Below are positions 20,137-58,574 of a DNA stretch of 64,000 nt, piece by piece; within the stretch, counting starts at the first letter, position 1; each line of letters starts with the position of its first letter. A program made the translations under genes and the position numbers. The DNA comes from an uncultured Verrucomicrobiae bacterium (GTDB lineage: Bacteria > Verrucomicrobiota > Verrucomicrobiia > Chthoniobacterales > UBA10450), in assembly GCA_963804875.1 (NCBI GenBank), contig CAWDRX010000003.1, positions 139,838 to 203,837 on the forward strand, given 5' to 3'. A model generated the notes under the pieces. It saw nothing but the letters and a program-made list of their open reading frames with translations, was not told where the DNA came from and did no database searches.

Positions 20137-20520
20137 CGAATCGAGCGACGGCTTGGGATTAGGATTCTCCTTTGGCCAAATACGGTGACGCCAGTAAACG
20201 TCTTCAATTGCTCCGCTGATATGCTACGCGCTCGACGAAGCTGAACGCTCGGGATTGGCTCTGTTTTCGGCGTTGTCGGCGATTGAAATGCTGGAACCAA
20301 GCGCGACAAAGACTACCGACAGAAACACAGCCGACGCGGCGCTGCGGATGATATGGTCATGGATTTTGCTTTTCGTTTTCATCTCTTGTTTTTCTTCCCG
20401 GAAAAATTCCTCAATAAATTTTGGAAGAAGTAAAGCCGAATTCGCCTGCGCAAGCTCCGCTTATCGTGCGAATTGCTAAGCGCTCGCGCTAAATCGTAAG
20501 ATCGAAATTCGAAAATAGAG

Positions 20521-20594
20521 TGGGCCTGACTGGGCTCGAACCAGTGACCCTGCGCTTATCAAGCGCATGCTCTAACCAACTGAGCTACAGGCCC
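20521..20594 (-). tRNA. tRNA-Ile (anticodon GAT).
   Basis: Minus-strand GGGCCTGTAGCTCAGTTGGTTAGAGCATGCGCTTGATAAGCGCAGGGTCACTGGTTCGAGCCCAGTCAGGCCCA folds as a cloverleaf. Anticodon loop is TTGATAA. CCA is not encoded. Confidence 0.9.
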
Positions 20595-21102: not shown

Positions 21103-21175
21103 TGGAGGCAAGGGGATTCGAACCCCTGACTTCCAGCTTGCAAAGCTGGCGCTCTACCAACTGAGCTATGCCCCC
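21103..21175 (-). tRNA. tRNA-Ala (anticodon TGC).
   Basis: Minus-strand GGGGGCATAGCTCAGTTGGTAGAGCGCCAGCTTTGCAAGCTGGAAGTCAGGGGTTCGAATCCCCTTGCCTCCA. Carries the G3:U70 alanine identity pair. Confidence 0.9.
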
Positions 21176-21227: not shown

Positions 21228-23307
21228 TCACCAAATCCGGGCGCGTTGCTCAGGTGCGATGAACATTTTGTCGCTGGGCTGGATTTTAAAGGCGTCGTAC
21301 CAGACATCCGTGTTTCGAGTCGGACCAATCACACGAAATTGACGAGGGGAATGTGGGTCGCTTACGACCTGCTTTTTAACGTAATCATCGCTGACTTTTC
21401 CGCGCCAGGCTTGCGCCCACCCGAGAAGCACGCGCTGATCGCCCGTGTAACCATCGAGGACTGGCGCCGGCTGTCCTTTGAGCGAAGCACGATAGGCGTC
21501 AAGCGCAAGGGTGAGGCCGCCCAGGTCCGCGATGTTTTCGCCCATGGTCAATTCTCCGTTTACATGGACGCCGGGAATCGGTTCGTATTTTGAGTATTGG
21601 GCGCCTAGCATTTTTGCTCGTGCCTGGAATGTGTCCGCGTCTTTCTTTGTCCACCAGTCGTGCAACGCACCGGATGCGTCGATCTTGCGGCCCTGATCGT
21701 CGAATCCGTGCGTGAGCTCGTGTCCGATGACGCCACCCGCCGCGCCGTAGTTAATTGCGGGATCAGCATCCGCGTCAAAAATCGGCGGCTGTAGAATTCC
21801 CGCCGGAAAAACAATATCCCGCAAACTTCCGTTGTAGGCGTCGTTCGTTTGCGGCGTCATGCTCCAGTCGGTTCGATCAACCGGTTTTGAAAATCGGTCG
21901 GTGTAAAAGTCCCAATCGAGCTGCGCGCAGCGTTTGACGTTGCCGATTAAATCGTCGCCGCGAATGACCAGCTTCGTGTAATCACGCGGATGATCTGGAT
22001 AGCCCACCTTAATCGTGTATGTGTCGAGTTTCTTCAGCGCTTCCTTTTTCGTCTCCGGACCCATCCAATCGAGCTTTTCGATCCTTGCGCGATACGCGGC
22101 TTTTAGATTAGTGACCAGATCCTGGATTTTCTGTTTTGCTTCCGGTGGAAAATATTTTGCGGTGTAAAGCTGACCGACTCCGAAGCCCATCGTTCCGAAG
22201 GTCCCAAAGCGATCTCCAACAAGAAAATCGCCACCGCTGACAGCTGTGATCGCGCGTTTCCAACGCGCCTGCTGTTGCTTCTGACCGGAGAGTGTTTTGT
22301 CGTGTAGCTCGAAGTAAGCGTCGGCGAATGGCTTAGAGAGATATGGCGAGGCGTTATCTGCGATGTGAAATGCCTGCCAGGCCCGAATCGTGTCGATCGG
22401 TGTCTTTGAATACGCGTCAACAATTTTCGGGAAAGGCGCTTTTCTCAGCAACAATGACGCGCGTCAGGTTCGGCATCTTTGCTTCGGCAAGAAATCTGTC
22501 CCACGCGAATCCGGGGACAAACTTCTTCAGATCTTGAAGCGACATCGGATTGTAGATCGCATTGAAGTCGCGCTGTTGCGCCTTTGTCCAGCTGGCCTCC
22601 GCGATTCTGGTTTCGAAATCGACGACCTCTTTGGCGTTTTTGTCAGCGTCAGGCCAGTTCAACAGTTTCAAAACTGTGGCGACATAATTTTGGTAGGCGC
22701 TCTTCTGGGCGGCGAAATCCGGTTTCAGATAATAATCGCGATCGGGCAGACCGATTCCCGCCTGTGTCAGATAGAAAGCGTATTTTTTGGGGTCCTTTAA
22801 ATCGGCGTCGATCATTGGATTGAAGAGAGAAAATTCCAAATCAGTCGTCGTCCGGCCCATCAATGCGGCAAAATCATCGCGAGTCTTAGCATCCTTGAGA
22901 GCGCTCAGTTCAGACTCAATCGGCTTCGCGCCAAGTTGCTCAATCCGCGCTTCGTCCGTGAAAGAGCGGTAAAACGCTCCGACTTTTTCCGCCAGCGTTG
23001 CTGGATTTTCAATCGGTTTCGCGCCAAGCGATTCCATCATCTCACGCAGCCGCTGTTCGGTCAGATCGGTCATTGCGAGCCGGAGCGAGTACGCCGGTTT
23101 GTCCGGAGGAATCTGCGTTTTGTCGATCCAGATTCCGTTGGCGAAACGAAAGAAGTCGTCGCCCGGTTTGGTTGCTGAATCCATTCCGGGCAGATCAAAT
23201 CCCCAGGCGCCGTATTTCAATTTCGTTGGAGGTGTGTCTTCGGCGTGGGCGAGAAGCGGATAGCAGCAGAGAACGGCGAGTAGAAGAATGCGCAACAGTG
23301 AACTCAT
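21228..23307 (-). CDS. M13-family zinc metallopeptidase (PepO/neprilysin-like). Secreted. Split by one apparent frameshift near 22417..22454.
   Basis: ORF 22417..23397 carries the M13 N-terminal domain and a signal peptide (MSSLLRILLLAVL). ORF 21228..22454 carries the catalytic domain with VIGHELTHGFDDQG (HExxH). The two read in different frames and overlap by 38 nt. Confidence 0.7.
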
Positions 23308-23418
23308 AAGATGGAGCGAGACAATAAACGAACAAAGGCAGATTGAGAAATTGGGAAGGCCGGTTCGTTGTATGGCACACCAGAAATTGCGACGCACCAG
23401 CGTTGCAATGTGGCGAAA

Positions 23419-23461
23419 AGAAAAATGCCGGATGTCGATTCTTTACGCCAACATCCGGCAT
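23419..23461 (-). terminator. Hairpin ATGCCGGATGT...ACATCCGGCAT followed on the minus strand by TTTTTCTTTTC. Likely rho-independent terminator of the HAF-repeat gene.
   Basis: 11-bp perfect stem followed by a T-run. Located 40 nt past the stop of gene 23503..24738. Confidence 0.5.
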
Positions 23462-23502: not shown

Positions 23503-24738
23503 TTAACGCGAAAGAGGTACAGCCAAATACGCCGTTAACGCGCCCGTATTTGGGTTGGTGGCTCTACCCGTTATCTCTCCTTTGTTATTTACGTCTTTGG
23601 CGCTTGTGAGCACTGCACTAAAGCCCGGCACTTTGAGATCATTAAGATCCGTTGGCGTGTTGCCGTGATCCCAAATAACTGCACGGCAATCAACCAGGTC
23701 CGCGTCGCATGAGACGCCGACTACCTGCCGACGTTCGTTAATGCCATAAGCCTCGCTGTCTACGTGTTCTGGTGTGCGGTTCCGCAAAGGCTTTAGCTGT
23801 CGAATGCCATCCTCCCTGGTCCACATGAAAGCGTGTAAGACGTCGCCTCCTACAAACTCCGGATCGCCAGCAAATCCAACTACATCGCCTCTTTGGTTGA
23901 TCGCTGTTGGCGTATTCCACCACGGCGCTGGAGGATTTGGATAAATGTCCGTCACGGTGCCATTTTCCCAAAGCACGGCATGCTTGGCTGTGTGTCTTCC
24001 AACGGCCTGATCACAGATACCGGAAATGCCCACGATTTGACCATTATCATTGATCGCCGTCGCAGCTCCTGAGCTATCTCCGGGGATTAAGGGCAAATCT
24101 TGGATTTGGTCCGGTGGTCCCAGAGTCCACACAGCTGGACGAAATTGCAGGACTTGCGGCGAGACACACGCGTTGTCATGAACACCATTCTCGGCCCACC
24201 CGACCACCTGACCAAAGTTATTGGCTCCGGTTGCAAAGCCGTTATTTCCTCCCGGAAACGGCAGAAGTCCTCTCATCTGGTTGTTTTGCCACACGAATCC
24301 GAGGTTGATATAGCCGACGTTGTTAGGCGTACTGTAGAAACCTGCGCTGCTCCAAGCCTCTCCGAGAGGCTCAGGATCGGAGGTCTGAGAAATGCCCACG
24401 AGGATGCCTTGAGTATTCTTCACATTCCACGTGACACTACTGTTAGGTCCGCCAAGTGTGCCGAGGTCGGTCAGCAAGCTGCTTCGCCACAGCGTAGCGT
24501 GCCGATTCCTGTTCGGCAGCCTGGAATAACCTGCCGCCCAGCTTTGATCATTGATGCTGTTCCCTCCGCTACTTGTGCCACCGAAATCGGGTAGGGTAGA
24601 CACCTGGTACTGCGATTTTGCCTTCATTGATTCCGGCTTTTGCGCGTGCACAGGTGTAAGCGTCGTAGCGAAGCAAACAGCGATCAGAATAACGAAAAGA
24701 GTTTGGTTAACTCTTTTGGTTGTGAATTGTGTTGTCAT
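23503..24738 (-). CDS. HAF-repeat (TIGR03803-like) secreted protein.
   Basis: Repeated HATLW/HAVLW/HAFMW...DLGTLGG units. Signal peptide present. Strong SD AAAGGAG lies upstream of the chosen ATG. Confidence 0.65.
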   Translation of the reverse strand: MTTQFTTKRVNQTLFVILIAVCFATTLTPVHAQKPESMKAKSQYQVSTLPDFGGTSSGGNSINDQSWAAGYSRLPNRNRHATLWRSSLLTDLGTLGGPNSSVTWNVKNTQGILVGISQTSDPEPLGEAWSSAGFYSTPNNVGYINLGFVWQNNQMRGLLPFPGGNNGFATGANNFGQVVGWAENGVHDNACVSPQVLQFRPAVWTLGPPDQIQDLPLIPGDSSGAATAINDNGQIVGISGICDQAVGRHTAKHAVLWENGTVTDIYPNPPAPWWNTPTAINQRGDVVGFAGDPEFVGGDVLHAFMWTREDGIRQLKPLRNRTPEHVDSEAYGINERRQVVGVSCDADLVDCRAVIWDHGNTPTDLNDLKVPGFSAVLTSAKDVNNKGEITGRATNPNTGALTAYLAVPLSR

Positions 24739-24927
24739 GTTTCTCTCCTTTGTTGAATTTTCATGACGACACTTTAGGAACTGGCCATACCTCACCTCCA
24801 TAGCCACTTCGCCGATTTGGTACGGACCATTTCAGCCTTAGTTGTCTGGTGGCAGAGCAGAAGATTTAAGACAGCGGAAGATTGATGCGAGGCTGCTGAA
24901 GCACGGCCTCGTTGTCTGCCCAACGGT

Positions 24928-27150: not shown

Positions 27151-27379
27151 GAGGAACTTCCAGTCCGCTGCTACTCATCTGATCCCAAGAGGTCTGTTAT
27201 TAGTTGCAGCAGCTCCAAGGTTACTGTTTTAAATAGGTTTCGGCCCTGAAGAAACTGTGAATCGAAATCAATCATCACCAAATTGACTCAAGGACGTGGA
27301 AGCGCTGCACGATTCTGAACAGGTAACCGATCGCAAACATTTGGCGAGACAGTGCATTTGGTCGAAACCGGATGGATTC

Positions 27380-28447
27380 ATGCGTCTTAGCATCGCCGCA
27401 TGTCTCGTGATGATGTTTTGCGCTGTCATGACACGGTTTGTCTCTGCTGGGAACCAAGCGGCGCTGCCGGCCACCGCATATTCTGTTGGGATGACCCAGA
27501 TTGAATATGTCGATCCTACAGATGGAGGTAGATCCTTGAACTACATGCTGATTTATCCAGCCGCTCCCGACGTCACCGGTACTCCTTTCAAAATATTTTT
27601 GTCCACCAAACTACACTTATACAAAGACGCACAGATAGTGTCCGACGGATTGAAGCACCCAATGGTGGTGTTCTCGCATGGCGCTGGTGGCAATGGCTCT
27701 GGGTATGCCTGGTTTGGTCAATACCTGGCATCGCACGGCTATCTCGTAGCCATGGTTTACCATTATCGGGCCAATACATTTGATTCGAGCGCGCTGTATG
27801 TGCGTAACAGGCTTTGGCAGCGACCGCGCGATGTGAGTCTGGACATTAGTCATTTGCTGGAGGACAAGGTTTGGGGACCACACATCGACCCGAATCAGAT
27901 TGGTGTAGCGGGACATTCGCAAGGTGGATTTACCGCGCTCTGGCTCGGCGGGGCCAAGGTTAATCCCGAACTGTTTCTGGCTTACCAACGCGGATGGAAG
28001 AATAACCAGGTGGTGCCGGCTTATTTGCGCGAGCAAATGCAACTTGACGCGAAACCGGCCGCTGACGTGCGCGACCATCGGGTGAAAGCCGCATTTGCGA
28101 TGGCCCCAGGTGATATTCAGGGATTTGGTATGGACGCGGCCGGGCTTCGGCAAATGACAATCCCAGCCTATCTCATCGTCGGTGCCGCAGACACAGCAAC
28201 GCCCCCGAAGGAAAATGCTGAGTTCGCTGCGAAATACATCCCGCACGCCACGCTCGACATACTATCAGGTCCGGTTGGCCACGAGATATTCGACAACGAA
28301 TGCGATCAGGTGGGACGCGACAATTATCCCGACGCCTGTATCGATGCCCCTGGCGTGGATCGGGCGAAACTGCACGACTACATCGGGAACGCTGCGTTGA
28401 AGTTCTTCGATGCGAACTTGAACGTAGAAAGACAAAAATCGAACTGA
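27380..28447 (+). CDS. Secreted alpha/beta-hydrolase (PAF-acetylhydrolase / dienelactone-hydrolase-like).
   Basis: Nucleophile elbow GHSQGG. Signal peptide MRLSIAACLVMMFCAV. Confidence 0.65.
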   Translation: MRLSIAACLVMMFCAVMTRFVSAGNQAALPATAYSVGMTQIEYVDPTDGGRSLNYMLIYPAAPDVTGTPFKIFLSTKLHLYKDAQIVSDGLKHPMVVFSHGAGGNGSGYAWFGQYLASHGYLVAMVYHYRANTFDSSALYVRNRLWQRPRDVSLDISHLLEDKVWGPHIDPNQIGVAGHSQGGFTALWLGGAKVNPELFLAYQRGWKNNQVVPAYLREQMQLDAKPAADVRDHRVKAAFAMAPGDIQGFGMDAAGLRQMTIPAYLIVGAADTATPPKENAEFAAKYIPHATLDILSGPVGHEIFDNECDQVGRDNYPDACIDAPGVDRAKLHDYIGNAALKFFDANLNVERQKSN

Positions 28448-29093: not shown

Positions 29094-29531
29094 ATGAAAT
29101 TTACGACGCTTATTGTTTTTTTCGCCGTCTTGATCTGCCGATTTTCATCCGCGCAAACGGTGGCTCAACAAGAAGTTCTCCAGTTCGAGCGCGATGCTTG
29201 CAAAGCATTTCTAGACGCCGACGTGTCCGCGCTGGAGCGCGTACTGACTCCCGACTTCACGCTGACGGTCTCGAATGGCGAAGTGAGCACGCGTGCGGAT
29301 GAGATCAACGAGCTACAGAGCAACAAAGTCCATTACGACGTATTTGAAAATTACGACATGTTAGCGCGGCTTTATGGCAACGACACGGCAGTTGTTCTGG
29401 GGAAAACGCGTGTAAAAGGAACAGCCGACGGCAAAGTGTTCGATCGAGTCGTGCAGTTCACGGACACCCTGATCAAGCGCGATGGTCGGTGGCAGCTTGC
29501 CGCGGGACACATTTCGCGGCTTGAGAAATAG
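29094..29531 (+). CDS. Secreted NTF2-like / DUF4440-like protein.
   Basis: Signal peptide plus a SnoaL/NTF2-like pattern. Confidence 0.55.
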   Translation: MKFTTLIVFFAVLICRFSSAQTVAQQEVLQFERDACKAFLDADVSALERVLTPDFTLTVSNGEVSTRADEINELQSNKVHYDVFENYDMLARLYGNDTAVVLGKTRVKGTADGKVFDRVVQFTDTLIKRDGRWQLAAGHISRLEK

Positions 29532-29611
29532 GATTGATGTTTGCGGCTGACGCAGCCGCCTTTCCGAGCTTCCTGGGTTCCAGCTTTCCTGATTCGATTT
29601 TTCTGTACAAA

Positions 29612-29655
29612 CAAAATGCCGGATGTCGATTCTTACGATTCGTCATCCGGCATTG
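29612..29655 (-). terminator. Hairpin ATGCCGGATG...CATCCGGCAT followed on the minus strand by TTTTGTTTGT. Candidate terminator about 200 nt past the 16S 3' end. It shares its stem and loop 5' half with the element at 23419.
   Basis: 10-bp stem followed by a T-run on the minus strand. Same 22-nt core aaaatgccggatgtcgattctt as at 23419..23461. Confidence 0.5.
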
Positions 29656-29846
29656 CAGTCGATGTGCAGCAAAGACTGAATTGTGCGTTACCGTCTTTCG
29701 TTCTTTGAAGCCTCACTCGCTTTCGCTCGTGAGGTCTTAACGGCATGTCCAAGAACTATCGGTTGAATGCTCTTGGATTTAGCCGTCGACCTATCGCAAG
29801 AGAAGTTGAATCTCGACCTTGCGGTCTTGAGTCTAATCTCTGCGCT

Positions 29847-31412
<1,566 letters not shown>

Positions 31413-31987
31413 CCGTTAAAAACGTTACCCCGCGGTTGCGGGGAAAGTTTGAAATCCCGCGTGAGCGGGATCGATCTGACTTTCATTACCTGAATCCTCT
31501 TGCGAGCATCCAGGGCTTGTCCGATCTAAATCTTTCATTTCAAAGATGATCGACAGATAACGCACAATTCAATGTTTACTGTCTTTACACCATCGACGGA
31601 TTTCCTGTTGAAATCCACGACCACACTGTCAAAGATCATCCTTCGCGTACACGGCAAAGCCCAACCTCAACAATCATCGACCGCAGAGAATTGGCTTACC
31701 GGGCCAGAGAAGAACACCGACTCCGCTGATGGAACCGGTCCCGCCGTTTCGCGGGATTCGTAAACTAGCAGACTCCCCCAGCGAGTCAAAGGGAATTTTG
31801 CAAACTTTCGATAATTTTAGAATTTGTCGCTATCTTTCTCTGGCACTGCTCACCGCCAAGACACGGATTCCAATATCATCGGCCGGAGAAGCCCACAATA
31901 TTATCCACGATTTCATGCGGCCTGAATTGCCTTGACCTGTCATTTGGTTCCTGATTCGCTCGGTTGCAATCCTCGACACTTCGTAAA

Positions 31988-57036: not shown

Positions 57037-58574
57037 ATTGCCATCTCTTCTGCCTTCGGTGGGCGCTCCGCTATGCCGGAATCATCGTCGAGCGCATGGG
57101 CGGCGATCCAACCCGACATGAGCACCATCGGCATGCCGGGTCCCGGGTGCGCCGCGCCGCCGGTGAGGTAGAGACCGCGCAGATCGGGGCTGCGATTACC
57201 CGGTTTGAATGCACCGAAAAATTTCCCGTGGCTGGCGAGTCCGTAGATCGCGCCGTTCAAAACATGGTAGCGCTCGTGTATGTCCTGCGGTGTCAGCGCC
57301 TCTTCGAAAACGATGCGCGATTCGATATCGGGCATCTGTCCCGTGCGTTTGAGCTTCTCTAAAATGACGCGCCGGTATCCGGGCAGCATTTTTTTCCAAT
57401 CATGGTGCGGCCGCAAATAGGGAGTGTGAACCAAAACGTACAGCGCTTCGCTACCAGCCGGCGCGGTGCCGGATTCGGTGCAACTTGTGGCGGCCAGGTA
57501 ACAGGTCGGGTCGGGCGCGGGCTCGCCCTTTTTGTAAATCCACTCGAATTCTTTGCGAGGATCGCGGCTGAACACAAAATCGTGATGGGCAAGATGTTCG
57601 TAACGTTTGTTGAGGCCGAGGTAGAGCACCACCCCGGAACAGGCTGGTTCATATTGACGACGCCGGGCAAAAGCTTCGCTGGCCGCGCCGTTCATCAATT
57701 CGCGATGAGTGCGGACGGAGTCGCAGTTAGAAACGACCGCGTCGAACGAAATTTCTCCATCTTCATCCGTGCGAACGCCTGTAACCTGGCCGTTGTCAGA
57801 CAGAATTTCTTCGACCTTTGTGTTTGTGAGGAATTCCACGCCAAGTTCGGTGGCAAGTTTTGCAAGAGCCTCCGGCACCGCGCGAGTACCGCCGATCGGA
57901 TACCAAATTCCTTCATCGGTTTGCATGTGCGCAATTCCGCAAAGAATGGCGGGTGATCCATAGGGCGACGATCCGACGTATTGGGTGAAATGATCGATCA
58001 TCTGGGCGACGCGTGGATCTGGAGAAAATGAGCGCACCGCGCTGGCGACGGATCGGCCCATACGCATCGCGAGTACGTCCCCGATCATTTGGGGATCGAA
58101 CGACGAGTTCCATTCGAACATGTCCCGCAAACCGCCGATCGATTTGTAGAAGAAATGGCGATCAGAAATTGCGTGCAGTCGCTCGCTGAACGCGATGAAA
58201 TCGCGATAACGCGCACCGGAGTTAGTGCCGGGCGCAAAGTGGTCGAGCGTCTGCGCCATCTCGTTCGGGTTTTGAGCAAGGTCGAGGACGGAGCCGTCAT
58301 CAAAGAAACAGCGCCACTGTGGATCGAGCCTAACGAGTGCCAGATAATCCTCCATCCGCGCCCCGGCTTCGTTAAAGATTCGGCGCAGAATCGAAGGCAT
58401 GGTGACGATAGTCGGTCCCATGTCGAAGCGGAAGACGTCGTTGCGGAGCTGGGCCGCTTTTCCCCCTAGCCAATGATTGCGTTCGAATAAAACAACTTTG
58501 TGTCCCCGCGCCGCCAGAACGCAGGCCGCGGAAAGGCCGCCAAGGCCGCCACCAATGATTCCGACCTTTTTCAT
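57030..58574 (-). CDS. FAD-dependent CrtI/CrtN-family carotenoid desaturase/oxidase.
   Basis: N-terminal MKKVGIIGGGLGGLSAACVLA (dinucleotide-binding) and the C-terminal phytoene-desaturase signature. 515 aa from the chosen start. Confidence 0.8.
   Translation of the reverse strand: MKKVGIIGGGLGGLSAACVLAARGHKVVLFERNHWLGGKAAQLRNDVFRFDMGPTIVTMPSILRRIFNEAGARMEDYLALVRLDPQWRCFFDDGSVLDLAQNPNEMAQTLDHFAPGTNSGARYRDFIAFSERLHAISDRHFFYKSIGGLRDMFEWNSSFDPQMIGDVLAMRMGRSVASAVRSFSPDPRVAQMIDHFTQYVGSSPYGSPAILCGIAHMQTDEGIWYPIGGTRAVPEALAKLATELGVEFLTNTKVEEILSDNGQVTGVRTDEDGEISFDAVVSNCDSVRTHRELMNGAASEAFARRRQYEPACSGVVLYLGLNKRYEHLAHHDFVFSRDPRKEFEWIYKKGEPAPDPTCYLAATSCTESGTAPAGSEALYVLVHTPYLRPHHDWKKMLPGYRRVILEKLKRTGQMPDIESRIVFEEALTPQDIHERYHVLNGAIYGLASHGKFFGAFKPGNRSPDLRGLYLTGGAAHPGPGMPMVLMSGWIAAHALDDDSGIAERPPKAEEMAIC

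Follow-up and report, generated by a model that had tools for sequence, protein, structure and literature searches.

A predicted Rho-independent terminator of an unlinked 16S rRNA gene in a Candidatus Udaeobacter-like verrucomicrobium and its probable paralogue behind a nearby protein gene

Intrinsic terminators, for example T1 and T2 of the Escherichia coli rrnB operon, consist of a G+C-rich stem-loop with a U-tract directly after it on the transcribed strand, and they mark the 3' ends of genes and rRNA units. REP, BIME, and REPIN elements are likewise short (~35 to 40 nt), imperfect intergenic palindromes, conserved beyond structural need, and they can act as terminators or RNA stabilizers. 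REPs number in the tens to hundreds, are dispersed, frequently form inverted pairs, and have a conserved GTAG-type tetranucleotide. In integrons, the attC sites (e.g., the Vibrio cholerae repeats) are similar hairpin repeats that follow co-oriented genes in a variable region. The element described here, which occurs twice in a 64-kb stretch of DNA (referred to in its entirety as the window), bears some likeness to each of these systems.

The first-pass annotation of the window had pointed to a 40-bp hairpin element present twice, and this is borne out. An identical 22-mer, AAAATGCCGGATGTCGATTCTT, is found at 23421-23442 and 29612-29633, after which come a 1-nt indel and ACG, and both copies fold at about -21 kcal/mol (Table 1). 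The 3' arm, CATCCGGCAT, is also common to copy 1 (c1) and copy 2 (c2). A 17-mer, ATGCCGGATGTCGATTC, has two exact matches in the window, both on the plus strand; the chance expectation in shuffled sequence is 0.22 matches at 3 or fewer mismatches. The copies are 6.2 kb apart in the same orientation, and since their flanks are unrelated on both sides, the repeat is about 40 bp long. What are these hairpins? In all probability, they are paralogous Rho-independent terminators, predicted to act on the minus strand, with c1 originating from the terminator module of the 16S rRNA gene.

Table 1. Features of the window and extra module copies in related loci (positions are those of the window unless a locus, numbered L, is named)
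Feature	Position	Strand	Remarks
Copy 1 (c1) hairpin	23425..23461	minus	covariance model 57.1 bits; fold -20.8 kcal/mol
c1 U-tract	23412..23424	minus	minus strand reads UUUUCUUUUCGCC
HAF-repeat protein gene	23503-24807	minus	TIGR02913 HAF_rpt, 90.2 bits against a cutoff of 22.65
Copy 2 (c2) hairpin	29616..29653	minus	covariance model 64.5 bits; fold -21.9 kcal/mol
c2 U-tract	29604..29615	minus	UUUGUUUGUACA, immediately 3' of the hairpin
16S rRNA gene	29857-31419	minus	Rfam SSU_rRNA_bacteria, 1522 bits
Pre-16S leader-trailer helix, 3' strand	29657..29710	minus	pairs with 31538-31598
Pre-16S leader-trailer helix, 5' (leader) strand	31538..31598	minus	restricted fold and exact-complement search
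DUF4440 gene	29094-29531	plus	convergent with 16S
Peptidase M13 gene	21228-23397	minus	two overlapping ORFs, 22417-23397 and 21228-22454; frameshift near 22434
tRNA-Ala(UGC)	21103-21175	minus	
tRNA-Ile(GAU)	20520-20594	minus	
Extra module copy in L238	2079-2160		
Extra module copy in L140	1370-1440		
Extra module copy in L006	2213-2255		
Extra module copy in L138	5277-5346		

To briefly describe the two structures, the RNA-sense sequence of c2 is AUGCCGGAUG-A-CGAAUC-GUAA-GAAUCG-A-CAUCCGGCAU, in which a 10-bp outer stem and an A-A mismatch are followed by an inner helix (CGA.UC paired with GA.UCG) around a GUAA loop. Its arms, at 29615-29632 and 29637-29654, are 18 nt long and 89% complementary, with a loop of 4 nt. 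As minus-strand RNA, the hairpin is followed by UUUGUUUGU. The corresponding sequence of c1 is AUGCCGGAUGUUGG-CGUAAAGAA-UCGACAUCCGGCAU, followed by UUUUCUUUUC. Its perfect inverted repeat is only 11 bp (arms at 23425-23435 and 23451-23461, with 15 nt between), but the stem is 14 bp long when two G-U pairs are included; the partner arm of the inner helix has drifted, with the pairing retained in minus-strand RNA by these two wobbles. The 22-nt identity therefore stands, but what was at first taken for a conserved half of the loop is in fact an arm of the inner helix. The observation that one copy follows the HAF-repeat gene and the other the 16S gene holds as well (42 nt downstream of the HAF stop codon and 204 nt downstream of the 16S 3' end at 29857, respectively, each on the same minus strand as its hairpin), as does that of a minus-strand T-run after both. 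Each copy thus has a stable stem-loop, a U-tract on one strand, and a position past a same-strand gene or RNA, as intrinsic terminators do. The label "terminator-type repeat family" fits in its first half, the anatomy of hairpin plus U-run on the minus strand, and fails in its second, as described below.

Candidatus Udaeobacter carries a 16S gene reported to be unlinked from the 23S gene in 80 of 80 long reads (bioRxiv 10.1101/705046). The window agrees with this, in that an Rfam scan of its 64 kb found neither a 23S nor a 5S gene. A 16S gene arranged in this way is expected to have a dedicated terminator, and c2, located between the 16S gene and the convergent DUF4440 gene, sits where one would be sought. 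The 3' strand of a pre-16S leader-trailer helix ends just 3 nt before the c2 hairpin. This helix, a duplex of -57.3 kcal/mol, comes from a restricted fold together with an exact-complement search, folding of the whole leader against the whole trailer being noisy, and it includes a 14-nt perfect complement, TGAATTGTGCGTTA, at 29677-29690(+) and 31558-31571(-), for which 0.01 matches are expected. It presumably represents the RNase III processing stem. The trailer flank that forms the 3' strand (29657-29710) is nearly invariant among c2 orthologues and, in some lineages, has been duplicated together with the hairpin. The foot of the leader-trailer helix is the site expected for the terminator of a 16S-only transcription unit. 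c2 would therefore end the stand-alone 16S transcript, whose proposed order is leader, 16S, trailer, 3' strand of the leader-trailer helix, hairpin, and U-tract.

tRNA-Ile(GAU) and tRNA-Ala(UGC) are the usual pair of the 16S-23S spacer. In the window, both are found on the strand of the 16S gene but 8.7 kb downstream of it, Ala before Ile, with no 23S gene after them. In more distant relatives (L133, L178, L184, L205, and L211), a tRNA-Ala-like sequence, read by eye, is present about 2 kb after the 16S gene, directly after an oxidoreductase gene. The displaced tRNAs look like a remnant of a broken-up rRNA operon.

As for c1, it would end the transcript of the HAF-repeat gene just ahead of the peptidase M13 gene, which is the next gene past the hairpin and is also on the minus strand. 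The M13 ORF could start as little as about 22 nt past c1, so that c1 may function as an attenuator or leaky terminator rather than as a full stop. The M13 gene itself is split in the window by one extra T in a short T run, by comparison with a 96%-identical metagenome contig (L126) in which the ORF is intact at 722 codons. It is either a pseudogene or the product of a sequencing error.

How widespread is this arrangement? A one-genome-per-species scan with the pattern ATGCCGGATG-N4-30-CATCCGGCAT returned at least 120 loci, and most of the matches listed are unrelated terminator-like hairpins of many phyla that have the same stem by chance. By itself, the stem sequence is thus unremarkable. Among the matches listed, 15 loci belong to Candidatus Udaeobacter, Chthoniobacterales, and related Verrucomicrobia, and these have the flank in common as well. 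Their 16S genes are 92 to 99% identical to that of the window, reaching 99.1% in a Candidatus Udaeobacter metagenome-assembled genome (MAG) (L058), and the source of the window is a Candidatus Udaeobacter-like verrucomicrobium. The related loci display a conserved gene order: 16S, c2, DUF4440, the 189-aa ORF (orf189), DUF5069, a MocR-like regulator, HAF, c1, and peptidase M13. One of them, L037, holds both copies, and its c2 is identical to that of the window. A c2 orthologue is present 172 to 288 nt 3' of the 16S gene in 14 of the 15 Udaeobacter-like genome loci, those whose DNA reaches the 16S gene, and at the same distance in 72 metagenome loci among the matches listed. The position of c1 is just as fixed. 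An orthologous hairpin is found 26 to 87 nt past the HAF stop codon in 41 of the 42 loci that include the HAF 3' end. HAF orthologues in the related loci are 48 to 97% identical to the window protein, and even where this identity is only 48 to 65%, c1 can be located by synteny alone and has the same outer stem.

In one lineage, L128, c1 is replaced by another hairpin, CGCUGCCGG-ACGCCCAGGCGA-CCGGCAGCG plus UUUU, about 30 to 70 nt after the HAF stop codon, and only a GCCGG/CCGGC core is retained. This is a case of terminator turnover at the c1 site.

Between the two copies, the window encodes, besides HAF and in this order, a MocR/PdxR-like regulator, DUF5069, an alpha/beta hydrolase, the unknown 189-aa ORF, and DUF4440, in both orientations; no recombinase is encoded among them. 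The possibility that this 6.2-kb interval is a recent mobile insertion was considered and rejected, given the lack of a recombinase and the conservation of the 16S-to-M13 order across the genus.

The orthologues also show on which strand the hairpins would function. At 109 c2 sites, the 12 nt downstream of the hairpin contain a mean of 8.5 T, compared to 4.3 A in the 12 nt upstream, and the downstream mean for 41 c1 orthologues is 7.5 T. Taking all 150 orthologous sites, 7.5 to 8.5 T downstream against 4 to 5 A upstream means that the signal is polar. Six c1 orthologues (L074, L129, L132, L152, L162, and L176) have no clean U-tract and instead have a small palindrome, UUCGGC...GCCGAA, after the hairpin. 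The mean fold over 68 distinct orthologues is -19 to -21 kcal/mol, and the loops are often of the GNRA type (GUAA, GCAA, or GUGA). G-U wobbles occur at pair 10 in 6 of 35 c1 sequences and at pair 14 in 14 of 33 c2 and 16 of 35 c1 sequences; as these would be A-C mismatches on the opposite strand, they point to a structure in minus-strand RNA. A terminator scan reported neither copy in the window. It accepted only loops of 3 to 8 nt and no internal mismatches, and it missed c1 and c2 because of these limits, so that its result is not counter-evidence.

Why should two transcription units have such similar hairpins at their 3' ends? The proposed answer is that c1 arose by duplication of the 16S terminator module, which runs from the last part of the trailer strand through the hairpin and the U-tract. 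In the divergent loci L053 and L198, c1 is still preceded by trailer sequence (...CACAUCGACUGCAAU), and in L053 the alignment with the 16S trailer extends over about 90 nt. This suggests that c1 is an old duplicate of the module. Most lineages would since have retained the functional part, hairpin plus U-tract, while the co-duplicated trailer flank decayed; that only these two are kept in most lineages indicates that they are the selected parts. The suggestion that c1 and c2 are not two independent terminators is thus upheld, the copies being related by descent, although not as members of a dispersed REP-like group: they occupy two syntenic contexts, plus one local duplicate.

In some lineages, the two copies of one genome resemble each other more closely than would be predicted from orthology. 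In L074, c1 and c2 are identical except at 1 of 33 nt, and in L162, they share a lineage-specific deletion. Across 17 genomes, the within-genome c1/c2 score is 6.44, compared to 5.37 +/- 0.42 when the pairings are permuted, a score of 6.44 being reached in 34 of 5000 permutations. This is modest evidence for occasional gene conversion. Conversion or re-duplication between copies 5 to 6 kb apart may have produced the unusual similarity seen in some lineages, that of the window included, and gene conversion would explain the 22-nt identity found there.

The DNA beyond the 16S gene is not uniform among close relatives. From the 16S terminator to DUF5069 (window 27296-28447 (+) and related loci), each of the following is found in some relatives and missing from others: the hydrolase, DUF4440, orf189, a Mo-oxidoreductase, and an AraC-dehydrogenase block. 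This marks a small flexible region adjoining the orphan 16S gene.

A few loci have extra copies of the module (Table 1). In L238 and L140, c2 is directly followed by a molybdopterin-oxidoreductase/cytochrome b561 gene that has the same orientation as the 16S gene. Behind this gene comes a second unit consisting of 34 nt of trailer flank (97% identity), a hairpin with a mutated 3' arm, and a U-tract, beyond which the sequence resumes as in the uninserted locus. In the second unit of L006, also behind the oxidoreductase, the hairpin is deleted and the flank is joined to GGCAUUUUG. L138 has an AraC-ADH-ADH-cupin-SDR block with a unit on either side, the hairpins of the two units being identical. 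The re-duplicated units as a group carry 32 to 34 nt of trailer flank at 97 to 100% identity. The most economical explanation is that any co-oriented gene in need of a terminator keeps a copy of the module.

Could the module play a more active part? One possibility, which we hold to be unlikely, is that the 16S terminator module is a self-propagating boundary element of the flexible region, cassette-like but integrase-free and working by homologous recombination at direct repeats. Each gain of a co-oriented gene would then create a module copy, and the repeats would go on to mediate gain, loss, and gene conversion. As with integron cassettes, each added co-oriented block in a few lineages does end with a module copy. 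Unlike integron cassettes, the blocks consist of several genes in mixed orientation, and the copies carry a U-tract and a piece of 16S trailer. Unlike attC sites, the copies have no R'/R'' core sites: neither R'' (RYYYAAC) nor R' (GTTRRRY) is found within 40 nt of c1 or c2 on either strand. Neither integrase nor transposase is encoded in the extra inserts of L006, L131, L138, and L238.

The same observations bear on a related alternative, quite unlikely in our estimation, in which the terminator module is in addition a hot spot for recombination or insertion. The units would serve as direct repeats for the gain and loss of gene blocks downstream of the orphan 16S gene, whether by Campbell-type homologous recombination or by an unknown site-specific system, and the c1-c2 pair could itself bracket such a block. 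The re-duplicated units after co-oriented inserts (the oxidoreductase in L238, L140, and L006 and the AraC block in L138), the return to uninserted-locus sequence past the second unit of L238, and the differing gene content between c2 and DUF5069 are all in keeping with a hot spot. However, besides the missing recombination enzymes and attC core sites and the multigene, mixed-orientation blocks, the same oxidoreductase gene is found without a second unit in many loci, and the c1 flank decays in most lineages, as would not be the case for a site under selection. Selection for a terminator after any co-oriented gene explains the pattern equally well.

One feature of these predicted terminators deserves further attention. 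All 68 distinct sequences (33 c2 and 35 c1) have the same outer 8-bp stem, GCCGGAUG/CAUCCGGC, an invariance that is partly due to ascertainment, as the search patterns fixed the stem. Because the outer 8 pairs never vary, RNAalifold has no covariation there by which to prove the structure, and in end-anchored pair counts, compensatory changes are few and confined to the inner helix. A sequence kept so constant could also be one that a protein recognizes. The hairpin might thus be a sequence-specific recognition site instead of, or besides, a terminator. As DNA, it might be a palindrome bound by a regulator, for example the MocR/PdxR-like protein whose gene is between c1 and c2; as RNA, it might be a site for a processing nuclease. 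The constancy of the outer stem while loops and flanks diverge, the A-A mismatch conserved at pair 9 in 29 of 33 c2 sequences, and the way c2 abuts the rRNA processing helix are what such a site might look like. Yet c1 does not retain the mismatch, 14 of its 35 sequences having a U-A pair there, the G-U pairs point to RNA rather than to a DNA palindrome, and both copies are located at gene 3' ends with a polar U-tract and not in promoter regions. The same 10-bp stem is, as mentioned, found in terminator-like hairpins of many unrelated phyla. Recognition as the role of the hairpin is therefore very improbable.

What about the possibility that c1 and c2 are two members of a larger family? A covariance model built from 42 c1 and c2 sequences and run without filters over the whole 64-kb window found no further copy, the next match scoring 9.6 bits (E = 3.5). 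A near-match to the 17-mer at 57319-57335 (3 mismatches) was considered as a third copy and discarded, as the model gives no match there. At gathering thresholds, Rfam returns only the 16S gene and two tRNAs from the window and nothing at c1 or c2; permissive scans of the two sites yield matches far below threshold (E >= 0.16). A metagenome scan with the pattern TGCCGGATGTCGA-N6-16-CATCCGGCA returned at least 120 soil contigs, with 122 distinct sites among the matches listed: 95 of the c2 class, 26 of the c1 class, and 1 local duplicate. The c2 class is made up of 72 sites at the distance from the 16S 3' end given above (172 to 288 nt), 19 with the trailer flank on contigs that stop short of the 16S gene, and 4 at contig ends where trailer-type flank bases are visible. 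In the c1 class, 25 sites are 26 to 83 nt past the last aligned HAF codon and 1 has a c1-type flank at a contig end. The local duplicate is the second copy in L138. All 122 listed sites are accounted for in this way, with no unrelated context among them. In 649 kb of related DNA, fuzzy matching found nothing beyond c1, c2, and local duplicates. Among the matches listed in the genome scan, a single exact-stem site falls on each Udaeobacter-like contig, among them CAWBIP010000002.1 at 4.04 Mb and CAVZLJ010000002.1 at 1.38 Mb; only L037, on a 14.7-kb contig, departs from this by having both copies.

Within the contigs scanned, which come from incomplete genomes, there are thus essentially only the two copies, and the claim of a dispersed family, which such a count was to refute, is not supported. 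Two contexts and a single local duplicate, taken together with the model and the searches of related DNA, give no support to a REP-like reading. Unlike REPs, the element is present in two or three copies per genome, within about 6 kb of each other, in direct orientation, in syntenic positions, and with no GTAG, that tetranucleotide being absent within 40 nt of c1 or c2 on either strand. A REP-like or MITE-like family mobilized in trans (e.g., by a RAYT transposase), with two members in the window, is largely refuted and extremely improbable: the fact that two intergenic sites separated by 6.2 kb have the stem and some of the interior in common, a stem core (GCCGGAUG...AUCCGGC) superficially similar to E. 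coli REP sequences, and a very weak Rfam match to naRNA4, which is REP-derived (12.2 bits, E = 9.9, where the gathering threshold is 59.5), are set against the copy counts just given, positions fixed by synteny across the genus, a direct orientation in place of inverted REPIN pairs, and the lack of a GTAG/CTAC signature.

Multi-copy hairpins with the ATGCCGGATG stem do appear elsewhere. Several are found in a Planctomycetaceae MAG, OY970189.1 (L015, L018, L028, and L106), and likewise in Pyrinomonadaceae MAGs (L019, L025, L036, L043, L051, L054, and L105), embedded in GCCGGAT(G)-rich short repeats such as gccggatgccggATGCCGGATGCCGG... They look like true multi-copy families in those bacteria, unrelated to the window element.

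Of the described systems, intrinsic terminators of the rrnB type are therefore the closest, and the differences are instructive. Whereas rrnB T1 and T2 end a 16S-23S-5S operon, c2 would end a 16S-only unit, where termination by RNA polymerase is predicted from sequence. Unlike typical rRNA-operon terminators, c2 is placed directly against the 3' strand of the leader-trailer helix, and in the window, the module appears to have been duplicated to serve a neighboring protein gene.

Overall, the result removes the lead of a REP-like family and gives a predicted 3' end for the 16S-only transcription unit of Candidatus Udaeobacter, which should aid annotation of one of the most abundant soil bacterial lineages, in which the rRNA genes are unlinked. 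If the hot-spot reading were true, for which the present evidence is thin, the module would offer a simple route by which accessory genes accumulate beside an orphan rRNA gene. In this organism, the leader-trailer helix and the predicted terminator are contiguous, and the pair of hairpins would be a clean example of a terminator copied as a module for use by a neighboring gene, with signs of concerted evolution between the copies.
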